Position numbers and translations under genes: made by a program. From the IMG/VR virus record IMGVR_UViG_646311924_000007, positions 33,898-97,897 of that record: a stretch of 64,000 nucleotides of DNA; one strand, 5' to 3'. The notes under the pieces were generated by a model. The model was given only the letters and a program-made list of their open reading frames with translations, ran no database searches and was not told where the DNA came from. This DNA is from a virus. Taxonomy: Duplodnaviria; Heunggongvirae; Uroviricota; Caudoviricetes. Shown in pieces: positions 6,513 through 61,229 of the stretch. Within the stretch, counting starts at the first letter, position 1; each line of letters begins with the position of its first letter.

Positions 6513-6699
6513 GTATTTTTAAGTCGCGAATGCTATCTTTTCGCATCATATTGACCTTTTAATCGTTCAGGCTTATAGTTCCGCCGTCGTAGCAAATTCT
6601 GCGACCGGGTTTAGCAGCCTGAATGATTGTGCGGACAGCCGCAGATATCCGATATTGCGGTATTTTTGTGTCCGTAAAACCGCGTTACGCCCAAATTAT

Positions 6700-6776
6700 G
6701 GTGGGGCGTGATGGGGAGGCTTCGGCCTGCTGGTTTCACAATCGCCAGTCTGCTAACCCCGTCACGTCCTGCCACC
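6700..6776 (+). ncRNA. c4: candidate c4-like antisense regulatory RNA
   Basis: GC-rich segment with self-complementary ends (GGTGGGG...CCTGCCACC) between the operator and icd, in the position of P1 c4; has a 7-nt stretch (CTGCTAA) complementary to the icd leader; boundaries approximate. Confidence 0.3.
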
Positions 6777-6826
6777 TGTTTAGCAGCGGGTAGCAGGTTG
6801 TTAAACCTGATTGTGAGGCCGTAACT

Positions 6827-10218: not shown

Positions 10219-10625
10219 TACAATCGTTGCGGGTGCTTGAGGCTATCTGCTTCAGGCATTACCCGAAAAGCAGATAGAAGAAAGCCCCAGATAACATTAC
10301 GCGTCCTGCAAGACGCTTAACATTAATCTGAGGCCACATCTATGCTTAGCATACGTAGATTAGCCTCTTACCGACCAAAAGGTCAAGGAGAAGCAGGCTA
10401 TGAAGCAGCAAAAAGCGATGTTAATCGCTCTGATCGTCATCTGTTTAACCGTCATTGTGACGGCACTGGTAACGAGGAAAGACCTCTGCGAGGTACGAAT
10501 CCGAACCGGCCAGACGGAGGTCACTGTCTTCACAGCCTACGAATCTGAAAGGTAAGAGACCTGGCGGGGAGAGATCCCCGCCACTCTTCGTGTGTCAGGT
10601 ATCCTCAATGCACCCTTTCCTCTCC

Positions 10626-23486: not shown

Positions 23487-24384
23487 GCACTGGAAAAACA
23501 TTACTATTTATAAACTTTCTCGTGAGGCGGATCTGACCGACTTAGAAGATAAAAAGAAAATGATCCTTTTCACGCCATGCGGTAGTCAGGATATGGCCAA
23601 GTTCGGTTTTGTATCGCCATTTGGTGATAATTCTGAAGTTATCGCTATGCATGGAAATGGTTTTATCCTTGTTGAAGCAAAGCGCGAAACAAAAATTCTT
23701 CCCCCGCCGGTTATCCAGCGAGCTATTCAAGAAAAAATTGAAAAACTTGAGCAAGAACAAGCGCGTAAACTGAAGAAAACAGAGAAGGACTCCCTGAAAG
23801 ACGAAGTTCTGCATTCTCTTCTGCCACGGGCTTTTTCAAAGTTTTCTGTTATCCAGGCGATCTACGACGGTTCAACTAAACGTATCTATATCAATGCCAG
23901 CGCGCGGCAGGCAGAGGATATGCTCGCGCTTATGCGTAAGTCTCTGGGTTCTCTTCCTGCTGTTCCCCTGAGTGTTGAAAATCCCATTGAATTAACGCTG
24001 ACCGACTGGGTACGTGATGGTAGTGCTCCACAGGGATTTCAAATGGGGGATGCGGCAGAACTTAAGGCAGTGCTTGAGGATGGCGGTATTGCCCGAGTGA
24101 AAAAGCAGGATTTGGGAAGCGATGAAATTTCCACACACCTGGAAGCTGGCAAGCTCGTCACTAAGTTGGCACTCGACTGGCAGAACCGCATTAAATTTAC
24201 ACTGGACCATAACTTCAGCCTTACCAGCGTCAAATTTGCGGATGAATTGCTTGAGCAGAACTCTGATATTGATAGTGAAGATGTTGCGCAGCGACTGGAC
24301 GCAGATTTCTTCCTGTTGACCAGTGAAATTTCGTGCCTGGTTGATGCTCTGGTAAATGCCCTTGGCGGAGAGGCTAAGCAGTGA
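23479..24384 (+). CDS. hrdC: RdgC-like recombination-associated protein (HrdC)
   Basis: Strong similarity to E. coli RdgC as I recall it ([13 protein letters not shown]..., [34 protein letters not shown]); ATG at 23479 chosen over the longer track ORF starting 23365. Confidence 0.8.
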
Positions 24385-27300
24385 AAGAGCTGTGCTATGG
24401 ATCTGTTTGCAGTGGAATTGAAGCCGCGAGTATTGCCTGGGAACCGTTGGGTATGCGTCCGGCGTGGTTTGCTGAAATCGAGCCTTTTCCATCGGCCGTT
24501 CTTGCGCTCCGCTGGCCCCATGTTGCCAACCTTGGCGACATGAAAAAACTTGCCAAAAAAGTCTTGGCTGGGGAAATCGAATCCCCTGACGTGCTCGTCG
24601 GGGGAACACCATGTTTTACCGCGGGGCATATGGTTCTTTGTAAAAATGGCTATAAACCAATAGAAAATGTTTGCCCTGGTGATTACGTAGTCAGTCATCT
24701 CGGGCGGTTACAACAAGTAAAAAGAGTTGGTTCAAAAATAGCTAATACGGGGTTACTTAATGCCGTTGGGCAGCCTTTAGGTATAAGAACAACCAATGAC
24801 CATCCCTTCCTGGCTGTTCGGTGGAAAGCCCAAAACACCCGGAAAAATGGCACATATTTTAAGAGAGAGTTGTTGTCTGAACCGGAATGGCGAGCAGCAT
24901 GTGATATGCCGGGATATCAATGGTGCGCTCTAACTAATTTCAATATTGCATTTCCAGATATTTGTTCTCGGTTCTTGTCTGAAGAACAGGCTATGTATCT
25001 TGCGGGCGCTTATGTTGGCGATGGATATATTAGGAGATGGAGAGGTAAATCTAAGAAGGCGGTTGTTTTTGGCATAAATTGCCAGAAATTGAGAAAGTTT
25101 CATTGCCGCATACCAGAAAACATATTTTCCGTGGCAAGCGAAATCCGAGGGAGCATCAAAGTAACCTTGAATGATACGTGTTATGCCAATTGGCTTAATG
25201 AACATTTTGGCGAGTTAAGCCATGCTAAGCGTATCCCTGCATGGGTGATGTCGCATCCATTGCGTCATGTGTTTTTACAAGGCTATCTTGATACTGATGG
25301 GACACCAAGTGGTAAAGCGGGATTTAGAATTAATAGTGTTAGTTCTGCGCTTGCTTGGGGCGTTGCGGGGTTGTCACAGACTTGTGGTTATGTTTCTTCG
25401 GTCAGCTTTATTGAAGTTGAGCCCAAAAAAGTGATCGAGGATCGCGTGGTAAATCAACGGAATTATTATCAGGTAACAATCTGCCCGCAGAAATTGTCAC
25501 GTAAATCAAGATTGGCTCATGGAATGCTTTTACGAACAGTCAAAGAGTTTAAATCGGTAGGCCTAGATACTGTATACAACATAGAAGTCGAAGGTGATCA
25601 TTCCTATATCCTCAATGGTGCGGTGGTCCATAACTGTCAGGCATTCAGTATCGCGGGATTACGTGGTGGGCTTGATGATGAGCGTGGCGCGCTAACTTTA
25701 AAGTATGTGGAGCTTGCAAATGCAATTGACGACAAACGGGCTGAGTCATTTCTCAAACCAGCCGTTATCGTCTGGGAAAATGTCCCAGGAGTCTTGTCAT
25801 CGGCAGATAACGCCTTCGGATGTTTCCTTGCCGGATTGGCTGGAGAAGATGTGCCATTTGAACCAGGTGATCGACCTGAATCAGGAAAAAGCAACGCGTT
25901 CTGGCGGTGGGATGGCAAAACCGGTTGCCATGTTCCAAAGTGGCCGCAGTGTGGTTGTATTTATGGACCGCAGCGAAAAGTGGCCTGGAGAATCCTTGAT
26001 GCCCAATACTTCGGAGTGGCACAACGACGCCGACGCGTGTTTGTTGTCGCAAGTGCTCGAACAGATCTCGATCCCGCAACGGTACTTTTTGAGTTCGAAG
26101 GCGTGCGCCGGAATATTGCGCCGAGCAGAGGCGAGGGGAAGGAAACTACCAGATATACTTCAAACATCGCTATCAGAACTTGCGATGATACAAACATAAT
26201 TGCCATGGCACATGGGCAAGGAGGGGCTGAGATAAAAACCGATAATTCGGCACCAACTTTGACATGTAACCATGAAGCACCAATTGTATTGCTCGGCGAC
26301 GGTAGAATGCGCCGTCTTACCCCTGTCGAATGTGAAAGGCTGCAAGGTTTTCCTGATTGGCATACGTTGATCCCTACGGAAAAGCGTAAAAAAGTTAATT
26401 CAGATGAACTGGCATATCTGCACAATCACTATCCAGATTTAAGCGAAGAAGAGGCCGCAATGCTTGCAGCTGACGGACCGCGTTACAAAGCGATCGGCAA
26501 TAGTATGGCAATACCAGTAATGCGCTGGATTGGCGATCGGATTACTAAGGCCGTATGTCGGCAGAAAGAAGGAAGTGAAACAAAAGAGCGAAAAGTTAAA
26601 CCAGCGGCAGAATTCGAACGGTCCATATTCAAATGGGCTGGTGGAAAATTTGGTGTTCTGGAACAAATCTTTCGCTATTTGCCAGAAGGGAAGCGCCTGA
26701 TTGAACCTTTCGTTGGTGGCGGAGCTGTCTTCATGAATGCCGGATACCAGGAAAATCTGCTAAATGATGTGAATGCTGACCTGATTAACTTTTACAAGAC
26801 TCTGCAACGCGAGGCGCATTCACTTATCACTCTGGCACATCGTTTCTTCCAGGACTACAACACACAGGAAGGATACCTGGCAGTACGGAATGCGTTTAAC
26901 AAACAAGTCTATGATGATTTACATCGCGCAGCGGCGTTTTTGTTCCTGAACCGACATTGTTTTAACGGATTGACGCGTTACAACCAGGCCGGTGAGTTCA
27001 ATGTCGGTTATGGGAAGTATAAAACTCCGTATTTCCCATTACAGGAGATGGAAGCCTTCCTCGGTGCGGAAGGGCGGTCTGAGTTTGTATGCGGTGATTT
27101 TGCAGCGGTGATTGAAGCTGCCGGAGAAGGAGATGTCATCTTTTGCGATCCGCCGTATGAACCGCTTCCAAATACAGAGGGATTCACGAACTATTCCGGT
27201 CATGACTTTAAGTTTGAAGAGCAAAAACGCCTGGTGTCTCTGTTGACGGATGCTCATCGTCGAGGTGCAAAGGTTCTCATTACTAACAGTGGCGCGCCAA

Positions 27301-27422
27301 ACATCAGAGAGCTTTATCATGACAGTGGCTTCAGAGTGGAACCTCTTTTTGCCAGACGTTCTGTGTCTTGTAAGGGGGACACTCGAGGTGTAGCTCATGA
27401 CGTTTTGGGTATATTGCTCTAA
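24381..27422 (+). CDS. dmt: bifunctional DNA methyltransferase Dmt (N-terminal C5-cytosine MTase interrupted by an intein; C-terminal Dam-like N6-adenine MTase)
   Basis: C5-MTase motifs I ([13 protein letters not shown]), IV ([12 protein letters not shown] split by insert), VI (ENV), VIII (QRRRRVF), X (GNSMAIPV); C-terminal FVGGGAV and DPPY motifs of Dam-type MTases; GTG start at 24381. Confidence 0.85.
24612..25634 (+). mobile_element. intein with LAGLIDADG homing-endonuclease domain (341 aa; Dmt residues 78-418)
   Basis: Begins with Cys (CFTAGHMVL, block A), block B TTNDHPF, two LAGLIDADG-like motifs ([21 protein letters not shown]), ends VVHN followed by the extein Cys of the PCQ motif. 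Confidence 0.8.
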
Positions 27423-27429
27423 TAAATTT
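27413..27429 (+). promoter_or_regulatory. C1 operator 17-mer (perfect ATTGCTCTAATAAATTT) overlapping the dmt stop codon
   Basis: Exact consensus; a degenerate inverted copy follows (TTTATTAGTGTAAT). Confidence 0.7.
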
Positions 27430-27603
27430 ATTAGTGTAATATCACCTCAATGAATCGTGATTTATAGAGCGATTTAGCTGTTAGCCGCGACAGGCGCGGC
27501 GGTAAGCATGGCTGGGCCTAGTCCTCCCAGACAAACCACCGAGTTGCCAGGTTGACCATGCGCCTAAGTGGCAACGCCGAAGTGCGTTACGAGCGTCCAG
27601 TTT

Positions 27604-27629
27604 GCCCATCTTCGGGTGGGCGTTTTTTT
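27604..27629 (+). terminator. rho-independent terminator-like hairpin
   Basis: GCCCATCTTCGGGTGGGC followed by GTTTTTTT, about 190 nt downstream of the operator. Confidence 0.5.
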
Positions 27630-28094
27630 CAGGGTTTTCGTCATGGTTAGCGACTTTGCGGCGGTTTAGAAACTGACCATTAAAGTAAATGCAAACGATG
27701 ATCTGATGATGGTAGCGGCCTAAGAAGCCAGATGCCATGGGGTATGAGTCGTCCCCCGTCAAAAAATCGACCGCAGAGTGTCCCCGTCTGTGTATTAGGG
27801 AACGGGGAGGCACAACAGGTAAGGGCGCTGGTGTGATTAACCAGATGAACGAGAAGGGGCCATCTGTTGGTCAGCGTCCTTTCCTGTTGCGTTTTCTTTT
27901 CAGCGTAACAGCGGTGCTTAACAGCACTTTGGGTACAGTTCCACGAATTTACGGGTATATCCCGTCATGCTGAAGGCGCTAATCACGCTGGAAGCCAGGG
28001 TTATGCATCCCCTGTTACCGAATTGCAGCCAGGGCGCGGTGCGCCGAAAAGCATACGGAGGTGGAAGCCCTCGCCGGAGACGTACCCGGCAAGT

Positions 28095-28169
28095 GATGGT
28101 GTAGCTCAGCGGTAGAGCAGTTGGCTGTTAACCAACTGGTCGGTAGTTCGAATCCACCCACCATCGCCA
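28095..28169 (+). tRNA. tRNA-Asn (anticodon GUU)
   Basis: Hand-folded cloverleaf: 7-bp acceptor GATGGTG/CACCATC, D-arm GCTCAGCGGTAGAGC, anticodon loop CUGUUAA, T-loop TTCGAAT, 3' CCA encoded; coordinates anchored to overlapping track ORFs. Confidence 0.8.
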
Positions 28170-28174
28170 CTTTA

Positions 28175-28261
28175 GGGGAGTTAGTCCGTAGGGGTAGCGG
28201 GGTAGACTGTAAATCTACTGTCATTGCGACTCGGGTGGTTCGACTCCATCACTCCCCACCA
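28175..28261 (+). tRNA. tRNA-like gene, class II, anticodon GUA (Tyr-like)
   Basis: Acceptor GGGGAGT/ACTCCCC, anticodon stem-loop GTAGA-CUGUAAA-TCTAC, 15-nt variable arm, T-arm GGTGG-TTCGACT-CCATC, CCA encoded; D-arm geometry irregular by 1 nt. Confidence 0.45.
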
Positions 28262-28265
28262 CATT

Positions 28266-28341
28266 GCCGATTTAGCTCAGTTGGTAGAGCAGTCGCTTTG
28301 TAAGCGAATGGTCAGCGGTTCGATCCCGTTAATCGGCACCA
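28266..28341 (+). tRNA. tRNA-Thr (anticodon UGU)
   Basis: Acceptor GCCGATT/AATCGGC, D-arm GCTCAGTTGGTAGAGC, anticodon loop UUUGUAA, T-loop TTCGATC, CCA encoded. Confidence 0.8.
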
Positions 28342-28345
28342 ACAT

Positions 28346-29076
28346 AACAGGTAAGAGCATTCTCCCTTATGGGGCCTGGCTTAAATGCATCGAGTGCTCT
28401 TACCGTTGTGATGAAGTGCAGATCTTAGAAGCAACCAGAAGATAAGCATCTGGCTTCACAACATAAACCGCAGGAACGACCAATAAACGGTAGTCCGTAT
28501 GGAGAACACCCCGTTGAGGAAGAGGCCTGGCCGGAACCGTAACCGGCGACTGGTAATGTGTGTAAATGGAGCGAAATATGTGGGCGTTTAACGGGATACG
28601 GGTTGTAACAGCGATTATTAACGGCGAACTTAAGTATTCACGTTTCGAGACAAATGAACGTGATGGGAAATGTATTGGTGTGCGGTTAGTAAGAGAATAC
28701 GCATAACAACTACAACGTTGAGAACACTGGCGTAACGGGGTCATATCCCAATCTACGAATAAATGTTGCGTTGCCGCGTGACAACCAGTGTTCTCAACAT
28801 TGTGGTGAATGCACAGGCTGATGTGCCGCAACTACAGTAGTGCGCGCTTTGCGGGGCTTGCTACAACCCTGTGTCGGAGTTCAGCACCGACCATCACAGT
28901 TTGATTCTCTGGCATGAGCATAACGCTGAAATAAGTCCAGTCTGGTGCGGTCTGATCACCCGCCGTTAGCTCCACGAAACGGAGCACGTAACAGGTAAGA
29001 GCATTCTCCTGTAACGGGTTCATATCCCAATCTACAGGTCCACCAAGAATGCTCTTTCCGTTGCGGTGAATGCGGC
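28346..29076 (+). repeat. ORF-free tract with three repeated hairpin units (candidate structured RNAs)
   Basis: Repeated blocks ACAGGTAAGAGCATTCTCC (x2), GTAACGGGKTCATATCCCAATCTAC (x2) and TTGYGRTGAAKGC (x3), each embedded in 10-18 bp inverted repeats; only implausible ORFs across it; coordinates +/-1. Confidence 0.45.
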
Positions 29077-29214
29077 TAAGCGCACGCGGGGAAATGGTTA
29101 TATCTGTCCATTATTTCTCCTTGTTTCCACGTCCACGGTGGATAACCAGCCAAAGGACACCGGGAGGAACCCGGCACCGCAGCTTTTTTATTCGTTAAAT
29201 AATGGAGTGAGAGG

Positions 29215-29451
29215 ATGCAGAACAATCCGAACAAATGTCGAACGCTATGGGTGCGGTTATATATTTATGCCGTCCTCTGTTTGATTGTGTCACTGGTTCT
29301 GTATGTTTGGCTTTTGCCAAATATGATCTCATCTAACAGCACAATACTTGTATTGTTGGGAGTCCTTCTCGCGCTCATTTACCCGGCTTTCGCAGTAGTC
29401 TTTTTTCGTGAAAAAACCAGGAAATTAATTAATGAAAAAAACGTTGATTAG
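29215..29451 (+). CDS. small integral membrane protein (78 aa)
   Basis: Two TM helices; overlaps the start of the downstream lipoprotein gene. Confidence 0.45.
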   Translation: MQNNPNKCRTLWVRLYIYAVLCLIVSLVLYVWLLPNMISSNSTILVLLGVLLALIYPAFAVVFFREKTRKLINEKNVD

Positions 29452-59430: not shown

Positions 59431-59612
59431 TGTTTTTTAACTACCGATGTTACATTGAGCCTGACCTCTTGCGCCTTGAGGCATTTTCGGTTTATGCTTA
59501 TCAGGCACCTCATTAAAACGGGTGCCGGGATTGGCCTCCCGCTTAAGTCTAAGGCGATACAGACGCCGCTCGCGTCTTTTTTTGTATCGGCGTACACGCA
59601 CACCTCTACAAT

Positions 59613-59691
59613 GGTGGGCTGTATGGGGCTACCTTCGGGTAGGCTGGTTACCTTGGACGCCAGTAAGGCCAACTCCGTACAGTCCACCGCC
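59613..59691 (+). ncRNA. candidate second c4-like antisense RNA
   Basis: Begins GGTGGGC and ends CCACCGCC like the module-1 candidate; contains CCTTGGACG, 8/9 complementary to the icd-2 RBS region; boundaries approximate. Confidence 0.3.
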
Positions 59692-59748
59692 AGCAAGATT
59701 GGTCTCTTCTGCGGTGGTTACATACCAACGTCTAAGGAGGCTGCCAAT

Positions 59749-60015: not shown

Positions 60016-60906
60016 TCAGGCTGCCAGATCATCGTTTCCGATGGAAGCATAATAAGCTTTTTCTGCTTCTGCCGGAGGAGTATGGCCCAGCCTTCCCAGC
60101 AATCGTCGATTGTTATACCAGTCCACCCACGTTAGTGTGGCCAGTTCCACTTCTGCACGGTTTTTCCAGCTCTTACGGTGTATTACCTCCGCTTTGTAAA
60201 GACCATTGATGCTCTCAGCCATCGCGTTGTCATACGAGTCGCCTGTACTCCCTGTTGATGCCAGTAATCCGGCTTCTTTTAGTCGCTCCGTATAGGCCAG
60301 TGACACATACTGAGAGCCTTTATCGCTGTGATGGATGGTGCCAGACGGACGACGGGCCCACAACGCCTGCTCCAGCGCATCCAGCACGAATGTCGTTTCC
60401 ATAGACGATGAGACCCGCCACCCCACGATGTATCCGGCAAACACATCAATGATAAACGCCACATAGACGAAGCCCTGCCATGTGCTGACGTAAGTAAAAT
60501 CAGCCACCCACAGCTGGTCAGGTCGTTCTGCCACGAACTGACGGTTTACGCGGTCGCCTGCGGCAACGGCTTTCCGGCTGATGGTCGTACGGACCTTTTT
60601 ACCCCGGAGAACACCGGCAAGTCCCATAACCGCCATGAGACGTGCCACTGTACATCTGGCCACCCTGATTCCTTCCCGTAACAACTGACGCCAGACTTTA
60701 CGCACACCGTACACCTGATGATTTTCATCGTATACGCGCTGTATCTCTCTCTTCAGCCAGTCGTCGTGCTGCGCACGGGCACTGCGTTTATCCGGATGAT
60801 GTCGCTGTTGCTGACAATGGTAATACGTTGACGGGGCAATATGCAGTTCGCTGCATACCGGTCCGACCCCGTACTGCTCACGCAGCTTATCCAGCAGTGG
60901 CATCAT
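60016..60906 (-). CDS. IS3-family transposase OrfB
   Basis: Protein identical to 41379..42269. Confidence 0.85.
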
Positions 60907-61229
60907 TTTTTCCAGAGGCGGTCGAACTCCGCCTTCGCAAAATAAGCGGAAGCCTGGCGAAGGATATCGTTACTGCGGCGCAGTTCACGATTTTCACGTT
61001 CCAGCTCTTTCAGACGCTGACGTTCAGCGCTGGTGAGCCCACCATCACCGCCCCCGGTATCCCGCTCATGCTGGCGAACCCAGACACGCAGAGTCTCCGG
61101 CGTACAGCCAATCTTTGGGGCAATGGAACAAATTGCCGCCCACTGTGAGTCATATTCATCCTGACTTTCCAGAACCATACGAATCGCCCGCTGACGGACT
61201 TCGGGGGAAAAACGAGTATTTTTAGTCAT
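60903..61229 (-). CDS. IS3-family transposase OrfA
   Basis: Protein identical to 41056..41382. Confidence 0.85.

Follow-up and report, generated by a model that had tools for sequence, protein, structure and literature searches.

A phage-type tRNA-Tyr gene in the exchangeable tRNA cassette of a P1-like phage-plasmid

The window analysed here, a stretch of 64,000 nucleotides from an IMG/VR virus record, carries at 28175-28261 a genuine class II tRNA gene with a Tyr anticodon. We assign the window to a P1-like phage-plasmid (genus Punavirus) other than reference P1. Taken as a whole, we consider it quite probable that the gene encodes a functional phage-type tRNA-Tyr, that it is expressed from an Asn-Tyr-Thr cassette during lytic growth, and that its likeliest benefit is replenishment of the tRNA-Tyr pool against PtuAB nucleases. 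The tRNA-Tyr of these P1-like elements is real and already annotated, so it is not new; no discussion of tRNA-Tyr in P1-like phages was found in the literature searched.

Identification and structure of the tRNA-Tyr gene

ARAGORN calls a tRNA-Tyr with anticodon gta at exactly these positions on the + strand. The Rfam model RF00005 matches 28175-28258 at 41.9 bits, above its curated gathering score of 29, with E-values of 1.7e-05 for the whole window and 2.6e-08 for the local stretch, and every one of model positions 1-71 is matched by the gene. A sequence-only reading of this DNA had proposed a class II Tyr(GUA) tRNA between the Asn and Thr genes, to be checked with a tRNA predictor. The ARAGORN coordinates are identical to those it gave, and with both ARAGORN and Rfam calling a tRNA-Tyr, the gene is not a pseudo-tRNA that scores below threshold. 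The details it had listed for the acceptor stem, the anticodon arm, the variable arm, the T loop and the encoded CCA are likewise all present in the ARAGORN call, the RF00005 alignment and the MFE fold (Table 1).

The MFE fold is the same cloverleaf as that of the covariance-model alignment. Its stability does not exceed that of shuffled sequences (z -0.67), as is usual for tRNAs, and thermodynamic stability was therefore left unused as evidence. As for a class II tRNA-Tyr, the anticodon GUA is flanked by U33 and by a purine at position 37 within a loop of 7 nt. Identity elements of E. coli tRNA-Tyr for TyrRS include G34, U35, A73, the G1-C72 pair and a long variable arm; the gene in the window has the long variable arm, A73 (28258) and G1-C72 (G28175 : C28257).

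Table 1. Features of the tRNA region in the window (positions are those of the window).
Feature	Position	Strand	Evidence
Bivalent C1 operator Oban (former Op72ab), overlaps P1ban and P2ban promoters	27413-27440	.	C1 consensus matches
Terminator-like hairpin and T7 run, end of dicF-like leader	27603-27629	+	conserved with P1 dicF-like region
tRNA-Asn(GUU), 75 nt, first cassette gene	28095-28169	+	ARAGORN, RF00005 69.9 bits
tRNA-Tyr(GUA), 87 nt, class II, CCA encoded	28175-28261	+	ARAGORN, RF00005 alignment, MFE fold, family covariation, MH160767.1 annotation
tRNA-Tyr acceptor stem, perfect 7 bp, GGGGAGU/ACUCCCC	28175-28181 / 28251-28257		
tRNA-Tyr U8 A9	28182-28183		
tRNA-Tyr 2-nt insertion GU (G10 U11)	28184-28185		covariance-model alignment
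tRNA-Tyr D stem CCGU/GCGG	28186-28189 / 28197-28200		
tRNA-Tyr D loop AGGGGUA	28190-28196		
tRNA-Tyr anticodon stem, 5 bp	28202-28206 / 28214-28218		
tRNA-Tyr anticodon loop C-U-G-U-A-A-A	28207-28213		
tRNA-Tyr anticodon GTA	28209-28211		
tRNA-Tyr variable region, 15 nt with 3-bp arm	28219-28233		
tRNA-Tyr T arm (5-bp stem, loop UUCGACU)	28234-28250		
tRNA-Tyr discriminator A	28258		
tRNA-Tyr CCA	28259-28261		
tRNA-Thr(UGU), 76 nt, third cassette gene	28266-28341	+	ARAGORN, RF00005 67.8 bits
Stable hairpin directly 3' of tRNA-Thr	28342-28410	+	MFE -32 kcal/mol, z -5.9
CAU-anticodon tRNA	30287-30362	+	ARAGORN, RF00005; sequence identical to P1 trnI
DnaB-like ban ORF	30637-32004	+	

A conserved insertion before the D stem

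The D arm had been read as irregular by one nucleotide; it is irregular, but the RF00005 alignment puts the size at two. The insertion falls between positions 9 and 10 of an otherwise canonical D arm, and the acceptor and D stems are separated by four nucleotides (U A G U) where the canonical number is two. A D stem lengthened by a pair between nucleotide 11 and position 26, which would leave an irregularity of one nucleotide, was considered and rejected. These two positions are unpaired in 23 of 35 relatives, and the two extra nucleotides are thus a conserved unpaired insertion, kept across the members of the phage tRNA-Tyr lineage in our alignment.

E. coli tyrU/tyrT shares with the window gene the loop CUGUAAA, the G1-C72 pair, A73, a class II variable arm and the 20-nt length from the acceptor stem to the anticodon stem. 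Host and phage types differ in the connector, which has the normal 2 nt in the host and 4 nt in the phage type, in the D stem (3 bp against 4 bp), in the D loop (11 nt against 7 nt) and in the loop of the variable arm (3 nt against 5 nt).

Generic tRNA scores are depressed because of this insertion. With RF00005, E. coli tyrU scores 53.4 bits, the window gene 41.9 and the tRNA-Tyr of the rV5-like phage LL12 29.9, while the T6 and T5-like copies fall under the Rfam threshold even though the T6 copy has been detected experimentally. The window gene has the top Rfam score among the phage copies scored here; the neighbouring tRNAs of the window reach 65-70 bits. Some T4-like phage homologues are labelled tRNA-OTHER or tRNA-Val in GenBank, labels that the insertion probably explains. 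Phage LL12 also has a 99-nt tRNA-like gene (L010:1892-1990), to which ARAGORN gives a 4-base anticodon (atcc) and GenBank the label tRNA-Lys with a remark on inconsistent isotype.

A phage-borne tRNA-Tyr lineage

The window gene groups with a phage-borne tRNA-Tyr lineage that is already known and has experimentally studied members. It is 96.6% identical to the tRNA-Tyr of the SSU5-like CMS-2020a, 93.1% to that of LL12, 89.7% to that of T6 and 79.5% to that of the T5-like phage IrisVonRoten; identity to E. coli tyrU is 71.3%. The lineage motif, UA-NN-CCGUAG(N)GGUAGCGG-N followed by the anticodon loop CUGUAAA and the T loop UUCRACU, is matched by the window gene, and the same D-arm motif is present in T6, rV5-like, T5-like, Felix O1-like and SSU5-like copies.

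At least 120 IMG/VR viral contigs match the pattern of D-arm motif and anticodon loop, as against only 2 of 185,579 species-representative prokaryotic genomes. A bacterial origin of the lineage was considered and set aside, as a Ruminococcus MAG and a Tissierella contig were the only matches to what is a narrow pattern that divergent bacterial relatives could escape.

Covariation among 35 distinct aligned relatives supports the structure. Base pairing holds in 97.3% of cells, with compensatory changes at 17 pairs; none of 500 shuffles attained the observed values, and sliding the 3' partners by 1-3 columns reduced pairing to 42-52%. Four helices (acceptor, anticodon, variable and T) vary in sequence; they are 99-100% paired, and all display strong compensatory covariation. 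The D stem is invariant, but the search pattern fixed three quarters of its pairs (the CCG/CGG core), so this invariance carries little weight. A73 is the same in 35 of 35 relatives, which also show strict conservation of the anticodon loop and of the TyrRS identity elements.

Among the IMG/VR matches listed, the tRNA-Tyr is the sole gene of its tRNA cluster at 20 viral loci and is accompanied by one other tRNA at 18. Many contigs, roughly 40-100 kb in length, have a lone Tyr gene or only Tyr and a CAU tRNA (L023, L028 and about 36 other loci). The many clusters of one or two genes suggest a benefit that is specific to Tyr.

Relationship of the window to P1 and other P1-like elements

The closest annotated element is Escherichia phage vB_EcoM-Ro157c2YLVW (MH160767.1 / NC_050153.1). 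The 351 bp around Asn-Tyr-Thr are 100% identical between the two, with the same gene order and spacers and no differences in the Asn-Tyr-Thr sequence, and the wider comparison of window positions 24000-33000 gives 99.3% identity at 98% coverage. The window may thus come from a sibling plasmid. In both records of that phage, the corresponding positions are annotated as tRNA-Asn, tRNA-Tyr(gta) and tRNA-Thr. The suggestion that the gene was unannotated or extra therefore holds in its second part, against P1 (NC_005856), and fails in its first, since MH160767.1 and RefSeq already have tRNA-Tyr.

Reference P1 (NC_005856) has only trnA (Asn), trnT (Thr) and trnI (CAU), which agrees with the set of Asn, Thr and Ile that the sequence-only reading had given. 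The comparison with the P1 tRNA region that it had proposed was run; in P1, as in RCS47, the Asn and Thr genes lie 2 nt apart with no Tyr gene between them. The window itself is not P1 but a P1-like variant. The two clusters share the locus, Oban/Pban and the leader (about 99%), the downstream CAU tRNA and ban, and the flanks are about 99% identical to P1 as far as the first tRNA. The P1 cluster differs in the missing Tyr gene, in Asn and Thr genes to which the window alleles are 88-90% identical, and in tciABC, which is replaced in the window. Because the Asn and Thr alleles differ as well, the whole cassette is an alternative allele, and there is no clean insertion of a Tyr gene.

In place of P1 tciA, tciB and tciC, the window has a 275-aa ORF at 29432-30256 (+), between the cassette and the CAU tRNA. 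Related records label it a putative serine protease, a lipoprotein or an SPFH-domain protein, and it also occurs in Stx-converting phages at about 86% identity.

The cassette and its mosaicism

ARAGORN finds four tRNAs in the window (Asn, Tyr, Thr and CAU). The cassette spacers are 5 nt (Asn-Tyr) and 4 nt (Tyr-Thr), and CCA is encoded in all three cassette genes. The Asn allele is of the N4/SSU5 type, with 94.7% and 98.7% identity, respectively, against 88.2% to P1. The Thr gene and P1 trnT are 89.5% identical and differ mostly in the anticodon and T stems. The CAU tRNA is the tRNA-Ile2 of the P1 record and is 89% identical to E. coli ileX.

Several arrangements of these genes exist. Besides Asn-Thr in P1 and RCS47 and Asn-Tyr-Thr in the window, there is Arg(tct)-Tyr-Thr in the P1-like plasmids CP125036 and NZ_CP027309 (Arg at L005/L006:146-222), Asn-Tyr-Thr with Ser(tga) as a fourth gene in Escherichia phage CMS-2020a, and Asn-Thr in D6, where Ser(tga) lies at a distance. 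In N4-like phages the order is Asn-Ser(tga)-Thr; the spacers there are again 5 nt and 4 nt long, and the Asn gene is 94.7% identical to that of the window. The junctions after CCA are recurrent A/T-rich spacers (AATT, ATTTA and similar). CMS-2020a is an SSU5-like phage-plasmid, whose flanks contain a DNA ligase gene and match SSU5 at 79% identity; the 96.6% identity of its Tyr gene makes the module common to two unrelated families of phage-plasmids, P1-like and SSU5-like. The tRNA-Arg(tct) of CP125036 and NZ_CP027309 has the acceptor stem and T arm of the window tRNA-Asn, while the D and anticodon arms differ, which resembles the outcome of an anticodon-arm swap on a common tRNA scaffold.

The hairpin directly downstream of tRNA-Thr is probably a 3' boundary or processing element of the cassette. 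Its P1 counterpart (L002:3472-3560) has a folding energy of -41.6 kcal/mol (z -5.4). The outer stem (ACAACAGGTAAG... / ...CTTACCGTTGTG) is common to the window and P1, with compensatory changes, and the interior is replaced. Inside the P1 hairpin there is a T-arm-like AGGGTTCGAATCCCT, possibly the remnant of a tRNA.

On plasmids, the P1-like region is matched by 748 PLSDB entries and the Tyr gene by 243, so roughly a third carry the gene. It is at least 95% identical in 242 of the 243 and at least 99% identical in 82 plasmids. Among complete E. coli genomes, 268 of 5,426 have the gene, on a plasmid in every case and never on the chromosome, and the carriers include STEC strains of O26, O111 and O157. 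RefSeq labels it tRNA-Tyr in 59 of 60 E. coli plasmid matches, among the matches listed.

Predicted expression from the ban operon

The tRNA genes lie between Oban/Pban and ban, all on the + strand, and thus within the ban-operon cluster. Oban, about 650 bp upstream of the array, has two matches to the C1 operator consensus, one perfect and one with 2 mismatches, and the two lie on opposite strands. This stretch is identical to the annotated Oban/Pban region of P1, and the leader, 680 bp long, has about 99% identity to its P1 counterpart. Since the array is downstream of C1-repressed Pban, lytic growth is probably the phase in which the tRNA-Tyr is made. If the array behaves like the P1 ban operon, it should stay silent in a lysogen and be switched on by derepression, with Pban as the likely source of lytic-phase transcription. 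A consensus scan of 27300-28700 found no promoter nearer than Pban, although the scan was insensitive and missed the annotated Pban too. The terminator-like hairpin sits between Pban and the tRNAs, and so transcripts from Pban that are bound for the tRNAs must read through it.

Proposed function and rival explanations

In the mechanism that we propose, derepression of the prophage would lead to transcription of the array, host RNase P and 3'-processing enzymes would process the transcript into mature tRNAs, host TyrRS would charge the tRNA-Tyr, in which the identity elements listed above are all present, and the charged tRNA would read UAU and UAC in lytic growth. The benefit would be that the Tyr-tRNA pool is kept filled against PtuAB-type nucleases (Septu and retron-Eco7).

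This proposal builds on studies of virulent phages. PtuAB of retron-Eco7 depletes host tRNA-Tyr, and the tRNA-Tyr of T5/SP15 restores infection, provided that its anticodon and stems are intact (PMC11555353). The tRNA-Tyr of T6 is seen on a northern blot, and T6 is rescued from Septu by overexpression of tRNA-Tyr or by amplification through SegB, with the T6 tRNA-Tyr itself being cut by Septu at C48; T4, which lacks a tRNA-Tyr gene, is unable to escape Septu (PMC13096335). The tRNA-Tyr of the window probably works like the T6 and T5/SP15 copies, and the benefit proposed for it is the same as that of the T5/SP15 tRNA-Tyr (PMC11555353). With T6 it shares the acceptor stem, the variable arm UGUCAUUGCGACUCG, the 2-nt insertion, the anticodon loop and CCA, and with the T5-like IrisVonRoten copy the lineage and the D-arm motif.

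There are also differences. The window and T6 copies differ in the D connector, position 26 and the anticodon stem. In T6, a virulent phage, the tRNA-Tyr gene adjoins segB, a homing endonuclease gene that amplifies it, whereas the window gene is present in single copy in a temperate phage-plasmid, within a repressor-controlled operon and with no segB nearby. The T5 tRNA-Tyr acting against retron-Eco7 has its own exceptionally strong promoter and is reported to be cleavage-resistant through a distinctive variable loop; the variable arm of the window gene, in contrast, is of the cleavable T6 type. As the T6 tRNA-Tyr with this same arm is cleaved at C48, any protection would come by dosage and not by resistance, and a single copy in a temperate phage may not reach a protective dose. 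It also counts against the proposal that a Tyr gene is lacking in most P1-like plasmids (243 carriers among 748 PLSDB region matches).

Codon usage was compared between 45 mechanically called ORFs of the window and 45 ORFs of one 50-kb stretch of E. coli K-12, and it bears on the chief rival, namely that the gene simply lets late phage genes be translated faster at their Tyr codons, much as the neighbouring tRNAs do for rare codons, and has no connection with host defence. Such codon supply is the classical view of phage tRNAs and is discussed in PMC13096335. The ACA, AUA, AGA and UCA codons, read by other tRNAs of P1-like cassettes, are enriched 2-3-fold in the window (2.7x, 3.2x, 2.0x and 2.1x, respectively, relative to the K-12 sample), and UAU alone is modestly enriched (1.31x). 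Tyr codons in total, however, stand at 30.7 versus 26.9 per 1000, just 1.14x the host sample, so the logic of supply suits the Thr, Ile, Arg and Ser tRNAs well and Tyr poorly. Moreover, E. coli has several tRNA-Tyr genes of its own. P1 and RCS47 have nearly the same genes and codon usage but no Tyr gene, and similar demand cannot explain a polymorphism of presence and absence. We therefore hold codon supply alone to be unlikely. Because Tyr codons are barely enriched and the tRNA-Tyr genes of T5 and T6 overcome PtuAB, replenishment of the pool under nuclease attack is favoured over codon matching, although its standing against simple supplementation amounts to about an even chance.

Two further readings were considered. 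The gene could be a non-functional passenger, that is, a pseudo-tRNA or a neutral hitch-hiker acquired by recombination with the array of another phage. The non-canonical connector, an Rfam score lower than those of tyrU and the neighbouring tRNAs and the visibly mosaic cassette would all fit a passenger. Yet the odd connector is kept lineage-wide while the helices covary, the T6 homologue with the same D-arm architecture is expressed and active (PMC13096335), and the gene is near-invariant in hundreds of P1-like and SSU5-like plasmids, which makes this explanation highly improbable. Equally improbable in our view is a non-translational role, in which the RNA would act as a decoy or inhibitor of a nuclease, or as punctuation for RNase P or RNase E processing, and decoding would be unneeded. 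A 'decoy or supplement' function has been raised for the T6 tRNA-Tyr, and exogenous phage tRNA-Tyr partly suppresses the degradation of host tRNA-Tyr (PMC13096335). But changes to the anticodon or stems of the SP15 tRNA abolish rescue, from which its authors conclude that a function in protein synthesis is required (PMC11555353), and the anticodon loop and TyrRS identity elements are strictly conserved in the lineage studied here.

Self-immunity to a nuclease encoded in the window was also considered for the tRNA-Tyr and rejected on the basis of 20 of the 45 large ORFs of the window, for which PADLOC gave no PtuA or PtuB and no known tRNA nuclease, the single candidate match being a weak one to PDC-S22.

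Replenishment of the pool can be extended to a broader idea, which we put forward as possible but doubtful: the exchangeable Tyr module of P1-like and SSU5-like phage-plasmids of E. coli would be an anti-defence gene that outruns depletion by PtuAB, and the 2-nt insertion would be a virus-restricted architecture shaped by the arms race. An anti-defence role would explain why only some of the plasmids, about a third, have the Tyr gene.

Other elements in the window

Two C4 antisense RNA genes are found on the + strand, at 6694-6779 and 59607-59694. A c4 a1/b1 target element (6573-6625) lies upstream of the first, and an isrK-like sRNA match (59505-59582) just upstream of the second, which points to two antisense control regions of the immunity type in a single element. 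Identical matches to the ALIL pseudoknot, a frameshift element of the IS3 family, occur about 19 kb apart at 41337-41453 (+) and 60832-60948 (-), and the two inverted copies point to two copies of one insertion sequence that bracket a segment of the plasmid. A match to the sok antitoxin RNA at 10231-10405 (+), with 114.8 bits, indicates an addiction module of the hok/sok type.

Implications for P1-like phage-plasmids

The consequences for genome annotation are small, as GenBank and RefSeq already say tRNA-Tyr. What does need correction is the expectation of finding the three tRNAs of P1 in P1-like elements. Their ban operon has a tRNA slot filled by a mosaic cassette that can be exchanged and is shared with the unrelated SSU5-like phage-plasmids, and the Tyr gene of the cassette in the window is closest to those of virulent phages. 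The interest that is left lies in the conserved non-canonical connector before the D stem and in a counter-defence role in temperate phage-plasmids, an idea for which P1 genetics offers an easy route to testing. If true, tRNA-based counter-defence would not be confined to virulent phages but would be shared by the widespread temperate phage-plasmids of pathogenic E. coli.
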